Source of the DNA: Cytophagales bacterium
GTDB lineage: Bacteria; Bacteroidota; Bacteroidia; Cytophagales; Spirosomataceae
Assembly (NCBI GenBank): GCA_038327655.1
Contig: JBBQLG010000004.1
Span: 32,302-96,301, forward strand
Direction: 5' to 3'
DNA: 64,000 bases
Part shown: positions 31,696 to 59,900 of the stretch, in pieces
Layout: every line of letters starts with the position of its first letter
Position numbering within the stretch: position 1 is the first letter of the stretch
Translations under genes and position numbers: made by a program
The notes under the pieces: generated by a model
Told to the model about the DNA's origin: nothing
The model's input: only the letters and a program-made list of their open reading frames with translations
Databases searched by the model: none

Positions 31696-32943
31696 ATGGA
31701 CTCTCAATTAACGGTACCTTCCCGGCCAACAATCGGCAAGTTGGAACGCATTCAGGTCGTCGATGCCCTGCGCGGCTTTGCCCTGTTTGGCATTTTGCTG
31801 GTCCACGCATCCAGTTGGTTCGATGGCGGCCCGCTGCCCGGCTCGGTCTACCAGATCAATGCGCAGGGACTCGCCAACACGATTATCCAGACCGTCGTCG
31901 GCATCTTCTTCAGTGGTAAGTTTTATACCTTTTTTTCCTTCCTGTTCGGGCTAAGTTTCGCCCTGATGCTGACCCGCGCGACCGAATCGGATGGGGCTTT
32001 TCTCAAACGGTTTGTCTGGCGGCTACTCATTCTGGGCGCAATCGGCGGGCTGCACAGTCTGCACTGGCGGGGTGACATCCTGAGCATTTACGCCATGCTG
32101 GGGTTTATCATGCTCTTCTTTCGCAGGGCACCCACCCGTTTCACCCTCATGGTGGCCGTGCTGCTGACCCTTAACCTGCCCATTCGGATTCGCGATGGGT
32201 ACACATCATTGTTTAGTACCCCACCGGCCAAAGCCCAACTCGACAAACAACGAAAGGCCGATGACGCCCAGATAGCGGCCAATTACGAGGTGATTAAACA
32301 CGGCAGTTATGCGGCTATGCTCCGGGTTAATCTAAACGAGTTCAGGACCAAAATGGATTTCCAGTTCGATAGCGGCCGGATTTACATCACGCTCGGTTTT
32401 TTTCTGCTGGGTCTCTACGCCGGTCGCCGACGGCTGTTCCAGAACCTGCCCGAACACGGGCCGTTGTTTCGTACAGTCACAAAGTACAGTGGCTTCACGG
32501 TATTGGGTATCATTCTGCTGTTTGCAGCCTCTATCGCCCTAATTGGTCAGGACAAGCAACCGCCCAAAGCCGTCGAACTTATTTTTTCGGGGCTGTTCGA
32601 CCTCGGCAACGGTGCCCTGACGGTGTTTTATATTACGGGTCTCACCCTGCTGTTCCAGCGGGTCTCCTGGCAGCGGATTGCGGAGCCATTGGCAGCAGTC
32701 GGGAAGATGGCCCTGACCAACTACGTGAGCCAGTCCGTGATTGGCACCCTGCTCTTTTACGGATACGGCCTCAATCTGCTTGGTGAGATCAGCACAGCTA
32801 CGGCGACCTCTTTAGCCATTCCGATTTTTCTGGCTCAGGTATTATTTAGCCGGTGGTGGCTGGCGCGGTTTCAGTACGGCCCACTGGAATGGATCTGGCG
32901 TTCGCTCACCTACGGCCGCGCCCAGCCAATGCGTTTGGTTTAG
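31696..32943 (+). CDS. DUF418 (YeiB-like) family membrane protein
   Basis: N-terminal signature RIQVVDALRGFALFGILLVHA and multiple TM helices. 415 aa. Confidence 0.65.
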   Translation: MDSQLTVPSRPTIGKLERIQVVDALRGFALFGILLVHASSWFDGGPLPGSVYQINAQGLANTIIQTVVGIFFSGKFYTFFSFLFGLSFALMLTRATESDGAFLKRFVWRLLILGAIGGLHSLHWRGDILSIYAMLGFIMLFFRRAPTRFTLMVAVLLTLNLPIRIRDGYTSLFSTPPAKAQLDKQRKADDAQIAANYEVIKHGSYAAMLRVNLNEFRTKMDFQFDSGRIYITLGFFLLGLYAGRRRLFQNLPEHGPLFRTVTKYSGFTVLGIILLFAASIALIGQDKQPPKAVELIFSGLFDLGNGALTVFYITGLTLLFQRVSWQRIAEPLAAVGKMALTNYVSQSVIGTLLFYGYGLNLLGEISTATATSLAIPIFLAQVLFSRWWLARFQYGPLEWIWRSLTYGRAQPMRLV

Positions 32944-33725
32944 TTCAGGTTCAGGCCAACGGTAATACCCAGCCAGGGCTTGTTCTGATAGATCCAGAGG
33001 CTGCGGTTGCTGTCGGTAATGGTTTCGATGCCGACGGCAAGCCCGGCCGAGAAATTTGCAAAACTAAACGTCGTGTTCAGTCCGTAATTCAGCCCCAGCG
33101 CCTGATAATCGTCCTGCACCCGGCCGAGCGTACTGAATGAGGTGATCGTAGCCGGGGCGAAACACAAAAAGCCGCCCAATCCCACGCTAAACGTCGAGAT
33201 TTCGGACCGTTGATTATGCCGAAAATAAACCGTCCGGTAGCGGCCCAGGTCGTAGCGTTCGCCAATATAAATTCCCACGTTCAGCTTGTCTTCGAGTTGT
33301 CCCGGTTGATTGGCGGTTTTAAACCGGTATTTAAACGGCAGCGTGAATAAGTCGATGTCTATGGCCGTGGTCTGGTAGCGAAACCAGGGGCTTTTTTCCT
33401 CGATCTTGTTCAGCGTCGGGTTGTAGTGCAGAAAAAATACGGCCAGCGAATCCGACTGATCGATGGTATTTGGGTCGCCATCGGGCGGGGGCAGGGTTTC
33501 TGACAGCAGTTCGGCGTAGAGGGTATCGGCCCGTTCGTAGAGAGCCGCTTTGACACGTTGGGTCAGGACTTTTGCTTTTACGCCCCCCTTTTTGGTGTAC
33601 GAATACATCGTCTGGTGGCGCGGAATCTGAAACACCTGATTGAGTGCCGTGGTGTCGTTCCGCTGACGAATGCTGGCGCAGGAGCACATAATGAGCAGTA
33701 CGAATAGGTAAAAGATGGATTTCAT
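32940..33725 (-). CDS. hypothetical lipoprotein / outer-membrane protein
   Basis: Signal peptide with lipobox (LLIMCSCAS). Beta-rich C-terminus ending in aromatic-x-aromatic. No family assignment. Confidence 0.4.
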   Translation of the reverse strand: MKSIFYLFVLLIMCSCASIRQRNDTTALNQVFQIPRHQTMYSYTKKGGVKAKVLTQRVKAALYERADTLYAELLSETLPPPDGDPNTIDQSDSLAVFFLHYNPTLNKIEEKSPWFRYQTTAIDIDLFTLPFKYRFKTANQPGQLEDKLNVGIYIGERYDLGRYRTVYFRHNQRSEISTFSVGLGGFLCFAPATITSFSTLGRVQDDYQALGLNYGLNTTFSFANFSAGLAVGIETITDSNRSLWIYQNKPWLGITVGLNLN

Positions 33726-33869
33726 AAAAGGCTGCGGTTTTATCCAGAACCCAAAACCATGTCAGTTGGCTGTGTTAGTTTAGCGAGTGACCTGCATCCG
33801 TTCGACGAACAGACCGCGTCGGCTGACGTTTTGAGGTATTTTGCGCCCTTCCGCCTTCACCACTATACC

Positions 33870-34355
33870 ATGCCCAACACCTATACCCAACTATATTGCC
33901 AGATAGTCTTCGCGGTGAAAGGCCGTCAGAACCTGATTTCCCGGACGTACAACGAAGAGTTGCATAAATACATAACCGGTATTGTACAGAATCGTGGAGC
34001 CAAATTACTGGCCGTTTACGCCATGCCCGACCATGTCCATTTGTTTGTCGGCTTCAACCCGACCCATACCCTCTCCGATTTGATTCGTGACGTAAAATCG
34101 TCCCCATCCGGCTTTATCAAGGAGAAGGGCTGGGTAAACGCTTTTGCCTGGCAGGAAGGGTACGGCGCGTTCACGTATGGGCAGTCGCAGGTAAAGGACG
34201 TGATTCGGTACGTGTTAGATCAGGAGGAGCATCACCGCAAATGCACCTTTCAATCGGAATACCTGCTGTTCCTGAAGCGATTCGAGGTACCCTATGACCC
34301 AAAATATGTATTCGAGTTTTACGACGAACCAGCCGAAAGTCAGCCACGCGAATAG
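33870..34355 (+). CDS. IS200-like Y1 (HuH) transposase; probable REP-associated tyrosine transposase (RAYT)
   Basis: Start taken at MPNTYTQLY (listed ORF begins 111 nt earlier). Motifs align with IS200 TnpA: LYCQIVFAVKGRQ (cf. YHIVFAPKYRR), HuH motif MPDHVHLFVGFNP (cf. CPDHIHMLVEIPP) and catalytic Tyr region AWQEGYGAFTYG. No tnpB partner. Followed by a REP-like repeat array. Confidence 0.75.
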   Translation: MPNTYTQLYCQIVFAVKGRQNLISRTYNEELHKYITGIVQNRGAKLLAVYAMPDHVHLFVGFNPTHTLSDLIRDVKSSPSGFIKEKGWVNAFAWQEGYGAFTYGQSQVKDVIRYVLDQEEHHRKCTFQSEYLLFLKRFEVPYDPKYVFEFYDEPAESQPRE

Positions 34356-34540
34356 CCTCAGAGGACGATCTGTCAATAGAGAAAGCTATATCGTCACGCA
34401 CAGATAATGCCCCGGAGGGGCGACCTGTCAATAGCAAGGATATCACCTACGCATCGTTGAAGCCCCGGCGGGGCGACCTGTCAATAGAGAATGCCGAATG
34501 TGAAGCGACATAAGCCCTCGAGGGGCGACCTATCAATCGA
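34356..34540 (+). repeat. array of four ~25-bp REP-like direct repeats at 52-55 bp periodicity
   Basis: Copies contain the cores CTGTCAATAG at 34370, 34425 and 34478 and CTATCAATCG at 34530. Consensus CCCCGG(A/C)GGGGCGACCTGTCAATAG with a GC-rich self-complementary 5-prime part. Terminal copies are more degenerate. Confidence 0.7.
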
Positions 34541-34692
34541 AACGATCTTCCACAAAACCCCGATTTACGTTAAGCCATTCTGTCACAAAAACACTATTTC
34601 CGCCAGATTTACCGCCAAAATGACCGAAATTCCCACCTGGCCCACCTTTTGTTGGTAGTAATGTGTAAGTAATAACGGTAACCCGACAACCC

Positions 34693-37341: not shown

Positions 37342-37431
37342 CAGATTTGAGATATGGAAAACGCCCGGCTGGAAGGTCGGGCGTTTTCGTCTATACTGTG
37401 TATCTTTGTTGACTGCCTAAACGCTCATTTT

Positions 37432-37641
37432 ATGCCTACTGTCCAATACGTCACAGATGTCAACGGCAAGCCGCTTTACGTGCAGCTTCCGATTAAGGAG
37501 TACGAAAAATTACTGGCTGGTGCTGAAGAATTGGCCGACATTACCGCTTACAAAAAAGCAAAGGCACAGCCCGGAAAATCCATACCGTTCGACGAAGCCT
37601 TCAAAGAGATTGAAGCGCATCACCGCAAGCACAACGCGTGA
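37432..37641 (+). CDS. type II antitoxin (Phd/YefM- or RelB-like) paired with the downstream RelE/ParE toxin
   Basis: 69 aa from MPTVQYVTDVNGKPLYVQLPIKEYEKLL. Its stop overlaps the toxin start (ATGA at 37638). Listed ORF starts earlier at 37354. Confidence 0.55.
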   Translation: MPTVQYVTDVNGKPLYVQLPIKEYEKLLAGAEELADITAYKKAKAQPGKSIPFDEAFKEIEAHHRKHNA

Positions 37642-56972: not shown

Positions 56973-59900
56973 ATGGCCGAACGCATCAGCTACGGTAAAA
57001 CCTGGTGGGGACAGCAATGGCTCAACGCCCTGACGAGTATTGACGAGGGGAACCGCCTGCCGCGCGGCAAAACCTACGCCAACAAAGGAGCCGTTCAGGG
57101 GCTGAAAATCGACGGGAACGAGATCAGCGCCTTAGTGAAAGGCACCAAACCCCGCCCCTACCGGACTAAATTATCGGTACCGCTCTTCACCCCCGAGGAA
57201 AAGGCAGCACTGCTGACCGAAATCCGCGACAACCCGGCCACATTAGCCCAGCTTCTGAACCGACAGCTCCCGCCCGAACTAATCGACTTCGCCACCAAGC
57301 AGGGCATTCAACTGTTTCCCCGCACGTTCGAGGATTTGACGATGGGCTGCTCCTGCCCGGATTATGCCATTCCGTGCAAACACCTCGCGGCCGTCATTTA
57401 CGTCATCGCCAATGAGATCGACCGGAATCCGTTTCTGGTTTTTCAGCTAAAAGGGCTGGACATCCTGACGGAACTACAGAAGGATCAGGCCGAAAACGTT
57501 GCCGGAACAATGGGCAGTGTTTTATCCCTGCGCGACATTTGTACCGACGACCTGCCCGACGACGAGAACTGGGAACCGAGCGAAAAAGCCCGCGCCCGGC
57601 TCGATTTCGCCATTATTCCGCCGTTGGCCGATTCCCTGCTGGGCCTGCTGGCACCGGAGGTTACCTTCACCAAGGGCGACTTTCATAAATCACTTAGCAA
57701 AGCCTACACCCTGTTCGGTAAGCCGATCGAGAGCAAGCCCATTTCGATTCGGAACGGGCAAGCGGCCAAACCCACCGCCGACCCGAATGCCCGAACCACA
57801 CCGGACTTAAGCGATAGCATCGAACTGCAACTCGATGAGTTGATGGCGTTTCGGCGCATCAATGTCTTCAGCGAACACGGCGAACAACGGTCACTCGCCG
57901 ATTTTGAGATGAGCGAACTGACCGACTGGCTGGCTACCCTCACCGAAGCCGACTGGCCCGAAATGAGCGACTCGGTCCGGGCGCTGTACCTCACGCGGCA
58001 ATTTTCGGCGGTCCTGCTCCGGCGCGGTGCGGTGGTGCCGCAACTCCTGCGCGTTGGTCCCGCCGAAGAGCAATACCGGATGCGGTGGCTCCCGGCAACC
58101 CTGAACGACGCCGTTCGGCAGCAAACCGAAATCATTGCCACGCAACTCCCGCCCACGCTGCTGACCCTGCGCTGGCAAAAAGATATTCTGGCGTTTCCCG
58201 GTGAGCAGCAGGTGCTCATGCTGTGTTCGCTGTTCATGCGCCGAACCATCAAACCAACGACCATTGAACTCTGGGAACGGTGGCCGCTGGAAGATGCCGA
58301 CCGGCTGTTTTTTGGCGTCGAGACGCTGCGTTTCGAGGGGTTCGGCAAGAAGGAAATGCCGCTGGCCATGCAACTCTGGCTCAACGATTTTTTCCTGACC
58401 CACAAACGGTTCGTGCCGATTCTGGCCGTCGAAGACTCTGAACTGGGCGATGAGTTTCGTGTCAGTCTGCTCATCCGCGACCGCGAAGCCGATGCGCCTG
58501 CCCCAACTCCCGAACCGGCGAAGAAAACAACCAAAACAACCAAGAAAGCGGCTCCGTCCGTAACCGCAACGCCTGCTGCACCCATTCCGTTGCCGGAAAT
58601 CCTGAAAGAGAAGAAACACGCGGGCATTCGAATGGCCGTTTTGCAGGATTTGCTGGTCCTGTCGCGGCACTTCCCGGACCTGGCCAATCTGACCCGGTCA
58701 GACGGTGCGGCTCATCTGTTTTACAAGCCCGAAGCCTTCGTGAAAGTCCTGCTCGAAACCCTGCCCCGGATGCAGTTGCTGGGCATTGCGCTCTGGTTAC
58801 CAAAATCGTTGCAACACTGGGTCCGGCCGCAGGTGGGTGGCCGGTTGAAAGCGAAAGTCACGGCGAAAAACGCGTTTATGAAGTTAGACGACATGCTTTC
58901 GTTCGACTGGCAGGTGGCTTTGGGCGACGAGATGGTGAGCGTTCGGGAGTTTCAGAAATTGGTGAACAATACAACCGGATTGGTCAAAATTAAAGATCAG
59001 TACGTCCTGATTGACCCTAATGACCTGACCAAACTCTACCGGCAACTCGAAAATCCGCCCGAACTGACCGGCACGGCCCTGCTCAAAGCCGCGCTGACGG
59101 AAGAATACAACGGCGGGCGACTGGGCATCGCCCCGGAGGTGCGGCAACTCATCCAGCAGTTTACCGACAGCCCCGCCCAAACCCTGCCCGACGACCTCCA
59201 CGCTACCCTCCGCCCCTATCAGCAGCGGGGTTACGACTGGCTCATCAAAAACACAGCCCTTGGCATGGGTAGTCTGCTGGCCGATGACATGGGGCTGGGT
59301 AAAACGGTACAGGTGATTGCGTTGCTGTTGAAATTCAAGCAGGAAGGGCGATTCGCCAGGCAAAAAGGATTGGTCGTACTACCCACAACGCTGCTCACCA
59401 ACTGGCAGAAAGAGATTGCCCGGTTCGCGCCTGACTTGCAGGCGCGGGTGTACCACGGCCCGAACCGCAAACTGCCGGGCAACGCTTCGCCGGATGGCGA
59501 TGGCTACGACCTGCTTCTGACGACGTATGGCGTGGTGCGCTCCGACCTGGAAACGCTGAAGAAAATCACCTGGGCGGTGGTCATCATCGACGAAGCGCAG
59601 AACATCAAAAACAGCGATACCGAACAGACCAAAGCCGTTAAAGCCCTGAAATCGCCCATCCGAATTGCCCTCAGCGGTACGCCCGTCGAAAACCGGCTGT
59701 CGGAGTTCTGGAGCATCATGGATTTCGTGAACAAGGGGTACCTTGGCGGACTGAGCAAATTCAACGAGGAGTTTGGCAAGCCCATTCAGCAAGAACGCGA
59801 CCAGCAGAAACTCGATCAATTCAAACGCGTGACGAGTCCGTTTCTGCTCCGGCGCGTGAAGACCGATAAAACCATCATCAGCGACCTGCCCGACAAAATC

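Follow-up and report, generated by a model that had tools for sequence, protein, structure and literature searches.

A 64-kb stretch of contig JBBQLG010000004.1, from a bacterium of the order Cytophagales (family Spirosomataceae), carries an intact gene for a single-strand transposase of the HUH/Y1 type, followed directly by an array of four similar repeats on the same strand. The whole of this stretch is referred to below as the window. The locus is probably the home site of a domesticated enzyme of TnpA-Y1 subclass 1.2, together with copies of a cognate DNA module, in an arrangement like that of the REPtrons, in which a REP-associated tyrosine transposase (RAYT) is found with its own repetitive extragenic palindromes (REPs). 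The initial annotation of the window had described it as a RAYT/REP system. What survives of that description is a Y1 enzyme which does not resemble part of an insertion sequence (IS), appears domesticated and is paired with hairpin repeats of its own; the protein itself lies outside the RAYT clade. Orthologous genes have this module at their flanks too, in Spirosoma, Fibrella, Larkinella, Chryseobacterium and many metagenomic relatives. The gene and the four repeat units of the window are listed here, with bit scores for the units from a covariance model.

33870–34355, + strand: HUH/Y1 gene, intact, 161 aa, TnpA-Y1 subclass 1.2 (Pfam Y1_Tnp, E 8.9e-23); key residues of the protein are D54 H55 V56 H57 (the HUH motif), W94 Q95 and Y114 in YVLDQEEHH, with a C-terminal domain at about 120–152
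34352–34381, + strand: unit 1, degenerate (18.9 bits, E 0.003), overlapping the Y1 stop codon; 3 bp of the stem left (CCT/AGG), tail CTGTCAATAG intact, no stable hairpin on folding
34406–34436, + strand: unit 2 (42.7 bits); hairpin GCCCC-GGA-GGGGC (34409–34421), linker GACC, tail TGTCAATAG
34459–34489, + strand: unit 3 (43.5 bits); hairpin GCCCC-GGC-GGGGC (34462–34474), linker GACC, tail TGTCAATAG
34511–34541, + strand: unit 4, slightly degenerate (35.8 bits); hairpin GCCCT-CGA-GGGGC with a T.G wobble (34514–34526), linker GACC, tail TATCAATCG

The repeat module in the window and in related genomes

The module consists of a 5-bp GC-rich stem with a 3–4-nt loop, a 4-nt linker (often GACC) and the conserved motif TGTYAATAG, usually followed by AA. 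MAFFT mis-registered the 5' stem arm when loop lengths were mixed; the alignment was therefore made through units with 3-nt loops, followed by realignment to the covariance model. In a set of 22 units chosen by hand, all with 3-nt loops, 98.2% of the cells in the stem are paired and four of the five pairs have changed on both sides, against pairing of at most 58% when the partner columns are slid. After realignment, 61 distinct units from 24 sources have 97.7% of cells paired, with compensatory changes at all five pairs; no shuffle attains the observed covariation score, and slid columns are paired in at most 59% of cells. G.T wobbles in the stem outnumber A.C mismatches by 21 to 3, which suggests that the strand reading hairpin then tail is the one that folds, a hint to be taken with an alignment that was fitted to the model and copies that are related. 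The units lack the GT[AG]G at the 5' foot that marks a canonical REP; the conserved motif is instead the 3' TGTYAATAG. Folding predicts the hairpins of units 2 and 3 and none for unit 1. Rfam yielded no match for the whole window at gathering thresholds and none for the region at E ≤ 10.

In the window, the four same-strand repeats run on directly from the Y1 stop codon, with start-to-start distances of 55, 53 and 52 bp. This agrees with the initial annotation, which had reported four repeats at 52–55 bp spacing and outer copies that are degenerate; units 1 and 4 are indeed weaker than units 2 and 3. The 18-mer GGGGCGACCTGTCAATAG, allowing up to three mismatches, matches the window four times, always at the array, where 0.05 matches are expected and none of 100 shuffles reaches four. 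Both strands of all 64 kb were searched with a covariance model based on units from several genera, with filters disabled; it finds the four units of the array, all on the + strand, and no copy elsewhere in the window. Looser motif matches at 59130 and 62981 fall within coding sequence and were dismissed as chance.

The repeat cores are 76–96% identical, and the spacers between them are no more alike than shuffled sequence. Because the spacers are unrelated, the array escapes Tandem Repeats Finder. Units 2 and 3 are identical at 24 of 25 positions, with spacers again at shuffle-level similarity, and this contrast implies that the unit cores are subject to some constraint, to conversion or to recent addition.

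In related genomes, every close locus has its units gathered at the flanks of Y1. The usual layout is a nested inverted composite, in which an outer unit with its tail is followed about 52 nt on by an inner hairpin and then by the mirror image of both. Gene-less composites of about 150 bp lie beside Y1, on one or both sides, in Spirosoma foliorum, Spirosoma knui and two further loci (L003 and L028), while in Fibrella, Chryseobacterium, the metagenomic relative L026 and Flavobacteriia-like metagenomic loci the Y1 gene is enclosed by the two inner hairpins. Eighty metagenomic relatives were compared (30–73% identity, almost all with Y...Q..HH); of about 78 loci that could be tested, about 45 have an inverted match of 13 nt or more, without mismatch, between the two 200-nt flanks of Y1, against a maximum of 8–12 in shuffles. 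The longest such match between the 200-nt flanks of the window gene is 6 nt. Runs in one orientation do occur, since downstream of Y1 in Larkinella knui (L021, 4546–5310) about six reverse units are followed by about six forward units, head-to-head and alternating with a second hairpin type.

Spacing is a further shared property. Measured on window positions 34406–34541 and on loci L001–L003 and L010–L029, the next same-strand hairpin is 50–54 nt away for 44 of 54 units (mode 52), in four genera and with spacers that are not conserved. The window distances of 53 and 52 fall within this register despite spacers that are unrelated in sequence.

Regular 25-nt repeats separated by unrelated spacers of 27–30 nt could also be read as an orphan array of the CRISPR (clustered regularly interspaced short palindromic repeats) or guide-RNA kind, and the regular period, the identity of the cores and the shuffle-level similarity of the spacers are as such an array would have them. 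However, there are four units only, two of them degenerate, and in relatives the units stand in nested, inverted pairs to either side of Y1, which is not a CRISPR architecture and in which the same fixed register is found. Neither cas genes, which the initial annotation had named as a finding that would count against its reading, nor tnpB was present among the open reading frames checked within about 10 kb. An orphan array of this kind is the least probable of the explanations considered and can hardly be entertained.

The Y1 gene and its product

The protein carries the HuH motif MPDHVHLFV given in the initial annotation. In an alignment of 28 family members, D54, H55, H57, W94, Q95, Y114, Q118 and H122 are invariant, and the DHVH motif, including V56, is invariant or nearly so. 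The catalytic tyrosine had earlier been placed in GYGAFTY, but the tyrosines of that stretch (Y98 and Y103) vary across the family. Y114, in IRYVLDQEEHH, aligns with Tyr132 of ISDra2 TnpA, the catalytic tyrosine of that enzyme. Alignment and invariance together identify Y114 as the predicted catalytic residue of the window protein.

The IS200 model of NCBIfam (NF033573) scores the protein at 69.7 bits, above its cut-off of 55, whereas the RAYT model (NF047646) gives 30.1 bits against a cut-off of 80. Comparison of the two groups thus runs against the RAYT assignment. Solved structures matched by the protein are the IS200/IS605 TnpAs of Sulfolobus, Deinococcus and Helicobacter. A profile of the 28 family sequences finds IS200, IS608 and ISDra2 TnpA in PDB at 1e-10 to 5e-15 and does not reach the Escherichia coli RAYT structure (PDB 4ER8) at E ≤ 10. 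The tyrosine motif is Y---Q--HH (YVLDQEEHH), and the class 2 motif Y---NP is not present. Membership of the RAYT/TnpA-REP class (class 2) was rejected on the motif, the model score and the structure matches.

The Y1 family has been divided into classes by Quentin, Siguier, Chandler and Fichant (2018, BMC Genomics 19:475; PMC6006769). In their scheme, subclass 1.2 has the motifs DH[IV]H, WQ and Y---Q--HH, a length of about 148 aa that includes a conserved C-terminal domain, some 30 aa long and specific to the subclass, low copy number, no IS200-type ends and a distribution in Cyanobacteria and Bacteroidetes (PMC6006769). The window protein has DHVH, WQ and YVLDQEEHH, and its C-terminal stretch at about 120–152 (HHRK.TF..EYL.FL..F.V.YD.KY.FE) is kept in members down to 33% identity. 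These features make it, on sequence criteria, a member of subclass 1.2; the C-terminal domain was matched through the published description and its conservation. The gene is also the single one of its kind in the window, where tblastn reveals no second Y1 gene, and no left-end hairpin accompanies it. Identity as a classical IS200 transposase (subclass 1.1) was set aside on the Y---Q--HH motif and the extra C-terminal domain.

In the public annotation this protein (P0001) has 198 aa, with its start at an upstream in-frame ATG at 33759. All orthologues begin at MPNTYTQ, which corresponds to 33870, so the 37 additional N-terminal residues (33759–33869) are probably not translated. The 161-aa product has no exact-protein record, the public entry being the 198-aa form.

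More than 4000 Y1 homologues were found, the nearest in Spirosoma, Fibrella, Larkinella, Nibrella and Chryseobacterium, and the clusters of homologous proteins mostly occupy one contig each. In all four Spirosoma genomes with a visible downstream neighbour, namely that of the window, S. foliorum, S. knui and a third relative with a complete contig, Y1 adjoins clpB, in either orientation. In L026, a fifth close relative, a GH30 gene lies downstream, and the upstream synteny is still shared; genes for a DUF937/OmpA protein, a short-chain dehydrogenase (adh_short) and a 316-aa protein are common to the window, S. foliorum and L026. Y1 holds the same chromosomal site in species with an identity of just 72–80%. 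In Chryseobacterium it lies between fadB and a thiolase gene in all of more than 19 places recorded, and in Fibrella its neighbour is mgtE. Relative to the window, Y1 is 72–78% identical where ClpB is 76–85% identical. Compared with its orthologues, Y1 has 0.13–0.23 non-synonymous differences per site (pN), and synonymous differences (pS) are saturated. Fixed sites within each genus, conservation like that of ClpB and these substitution values are what a host gene of long residence and under purifying selection would show, and not an active IS. As in RAYT systems, the gene is single-copy, at a conserved locus and vertically inherited.

In the window, a DUF418/YeiB-like gene and a gene for a 261-aa protein with no family match (31696–33725) separate Y1 from the 316-aa neighbour; S. 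foliorum and L026 are without these two genes and have hairpin composites at that position instead. In the closest relative (L027, 80% identity), an IS of the DDE_Tnp_1 type (653–1530) ends 20 bp upstream of the Y1 start and replaces the usual units.

An autonomous tnpA-only IS200 element, whose right-end sub-terminal hairpins had been duplicated by slippage to give the repeats, would account for the NCBIfam score and for the nearest solved structures. The right end of IS608 has a hairpin with a motif nearby, a layout resembling that of the module, and the order of hairpin, about 10 nt and then a conserved motif containing TCAA recalls it. In several relatives, moreover, the gene lies inside inverted modules, much as an IS would be related to gene-less derivatives of the kind known as miniature inverted-repeat transposable elements (MITEs). 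Against this, the gene is single-copy at a shared site and is conserved like ClpB, and the Y---Q--HH motif and C-terminal domain separate the protein from subclass 1.1. The ends do not fit either. The window units are confined to the downstream side of the gene, the covariance model found no left-end structure in the window, and the flanking modules of relatives are inverted rather than on the same strand as in IS200/IS605. The initial annotation had likewise reported no obvious IS terminal hairpins and no tnpB partner. An autonomous IS200 is accordingly an unlikely explanation of the locus.

Neighbouring genes, dispersed copies and proposed mode of action

The initial annotation had also suggested that the array may affect heat-shock expression of clpB. 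Four Spirosoma genomes share a conserved block upstream of clpB, at 34578–34656 in the window (TTCTGTCACAA ... CCGCCAAAATGACCGAAA ... GGCCCACCTTTTGTTGG), a candidate for the clpB promoter or for a heat-shock operator. The block is downstream of the array, separate from it, and kept whichever way Y1 is oriented. A combined sigma-70 promoter and terminator scan was uninformative. No T-run follows the hairpins, and terminator scanning gave one site against 1.7 expected, so that a reading of the hairpins as terminators was rejected. A role in clpB expression is unsupported, because the conserved block lies beyond the array, Y1 in other genera has unrelated neighbours and the T-run is lacking.

In a more general form of this proposal, the repeats would be cis-acting expression sites with no catalytic tie to Y1, serving as protein-binding sites, terminators or attenuators, or elements stabilizing the mRNA of Y1 or clpB. 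The array lies past the Y1 stop codon and ahead of the clpB promoter region, a position that would suit such sites, as would the period of 52–53 bp, close to five helical turns, and REP-like hairpins do affect mRNA stability and termination (PMC3733652). Y1 also stands beside heat-shock genes in two lineages, next to clpB in Spirosoma and after grpE-dnaJ in L028. But the module accompanies Y1 where the neighbours are unrelated (mgtE in Fibrella, the fadB-thiolase operon in Chryseobacterium) and is found at unrelated intergenic sites as well; together with the terminator result, the separate clpB block and the want of an Rfam match, this makes a purely regulatory role improbable.

Some features of the neighbourhood are recorded here for completeness. 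The grpE-dnaJ context belongs to a metagenomic sequence (L028, 1933–4570, 79% identity), and its agreement with clpB as a second heat-shock context may be coincidence. Directly downstream of clpB in the window is a RelB-like antitoxin/ParE toxin pair (37354–37898), and genes for an RtcB RNA ligase, a Band 7/SPFH protein and a WYL-WCX regulator lie close together at 38444–42921.

Copies of the module also occur without the gene. A collection of 185,579 species-representative genomes, which does not include the source genome, was scanned with the 18-mer GGGGCGACCNGTCAATAG. Of the 16 matches, eight lie in coding sequence or in unrelated phyla and are due to chance. The remainder belong to complete composites on four contigs of Spirosoma utsteinense, two of Spirosoma fluviale and one Bacteroidota metagenome-assembled genome, and the 6–8 kb fetched around each contains no Y1 gene. 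Dispersed composites thus number at least four in S. utsteinense and two in S. fluviale. One S. utsteinense copy (L018) consists of the composite alone and begins right after the stop codon of a gene. L026 has a second composite 2.3 kb from its Y1. In the plasmid collection there was no match to composite or array.

By analogy with the TnpAs of IS608 and ISDra2 and with E. coli TnpA-REP, the Y1 enzyme would most likely bind the hairpin on transiently single-stranded DNA and cut in or beside the conserved tail. Excision, copying or local amplification of modules in trans would thereby become possible, with the gene itself remaining in place. For the TnpAs of IS608 and ISDra2, such hairpin recognition and cutting have been shown. 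Hairpin recognition and cutting by E. coli TnpA-REP, and local amplification of bacterial interspersed mosaic elements (BIMEs) at REPtrons, have been described (PMC3333891). The fixed register of two hairpins would fit a dimeric, IS200-like enzyme gripping both. For the origin of the direct array in the window, we infer local amplification or rearrangement of a half-composite, now partly decayed, which would have left four direct outer-type units on the downstream side of the gene only.

Several observations weigh against a REPtron-like system. Subclass 1.2 is entered as 'REP: no' in the published table (PMC6006769), and the action proposed for its enzyme is drawn from analogy with other Y1 proteins. 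Single hairpins are thermodynamically unremarkable (z about -1), and the 221-nt array is no more stable than its shuffles (z = -0.25), so that support for the structure comes from covariation, not from energy. In S. utsteinense there are only four exact matches to the 18-mer, and classical REPs may therefore outnumber these elements by far. Three of the S. utsteinense composites (L010, 3502–3913; L019, 25–451; L016, around 830–1112) lie mid-way in a MITE-like element of 412–427 bp with 24-bp terminal inverted repeats (AACATGAGTCATCCCGAATTTTAA), and for this reason another transposase may be responsible for some of the spread of these copies. Finally, the covariance model finds no units upstream of Y1, no inverted partner and no second locus in the window, and the array may thus be a relic.

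Taken to its limit, the last point would make the array non-functional debris of a former composite, kept by chance. Units 1 and 4 are degenerate, nearly all relatives do have inverted partners or upstream units, and two extra genes have come to lie between Y1 and its usual upstream neighbour. Mere decay is nevertheless very improbable given an intact Y1 gene and the near-identity of units 2 and 3 across spacers of shuffle-level similarity. It and the three other explanations discussed above are each less likely than a REPtron-like home site of enzyme and module.

Relation to known systems and significance

The protein family is already known and classified. The window protein agrees with subclass 1.2 in its motifs, its length of about 150 aa, its C-terminal domain, low copy number, absence of IS200-type ends and occurrence in Bacteroidota (PMC6006769). 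It differs in that inverted hairpin modules here regularly bracket the genes and gene-less copies exist in related genomes, contrary to the 'REP: no' entry. An association of subclass 1.2 with REP-like elements was not found in the literature searched and contradicts that entry. At family level the association is clear and general. Its mechanism is proposed by analogy, and the window locus is a degenerate example of it.

The closest parallel in organization is the REPtron, or the RAYT with its REPINs (REP doublets forming hairpins), as in E. coli yafM and the Pseudomonas RAYTs (PMC3333891, PMC3116915). Both systems combine a Y1 gene that is inherited vertically and kept as one copy at a constant locus with a variable number of its own inverted hairpin repeats at the flanks, and in both there are dispersed gene-less inverted doublets and repeats open to local amplification. 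The differences lie in the protein, class 1 with Y---Q--HH here and class 2 with Y---NP there, and in the DNA, where a 5-bp stem with its motif 3' of the hairpin (TGTYAATAG) replaces the 5' GT[AG]G foot. The pairs here are double and nested, with a register of about 52 nt and an apparently low copy number, and the window units are direct, not inverted.

In sequence and structure the closest relatives are instead those of subclass 1.1 (IS200, IS608 and ISDra2), which likewise have a hairpin with a nearby cleavage motif as substrate and among which tnpA-only elements exist. These, however, are multi-copy, horizontally spread elements with same-strand end hairpins, in contrast to a syntenic, single-copy gene with modules that are inverted in relatives. 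Subclass 2.6, or RAYT group 5, of the Bacteroidetes shares the phylum and is described with atypical, weak flanking structures, no GTAG and copies elsewhere in the genome, but its proteins have NH[LIV]H and YIH[QN]NP and about 179 aa, and both motifs are missing from the window protein. Two further candidates, CGTC-tagged repeats and TIRYT elements (PMC3733652), were set aside because their stem length, tag and protein class do not agree with those found here.

A broader proposal, which is tentative and which we would place a little short of even, is that subclass 1.2 forms a second, independent lineage of domesticated single-strand transposases that maintain their own REPIN-like elements. These would be two-hairpin modules with a 3' tail of the TGTYAATAG type and a register of about 52 nt, set by a dimeric enzyme and arranged in nested inverted pairs, and they would extend through the Bacteroidota to more distant high-GC members.

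The standard example of a bacterial transposase that has become domesticated and coexists with non-autonomous elements of its own is the REP/RAYT system. To our knowledge, systems of this kind have been described almost exclusively for Y1 enzymes of class 2, most of them in Proteobacteria. The locus in the window is probably a somewhat decayed member of a comparable system and not a regulator of clpB. If the association is true genome-wide, the same lifestyle would have arisen separately in the IS200-like class 1 lineage, and thousands of Bacteroidota genes annotated as 'IS200/IS605 family transposase' would not be insertion sequences. The module, a 13-nt hairpin with a 9-nt tail in a fixed register, would also provide a new and compact substrate for understanding how HUH enzymes choose single-stranded DNA.

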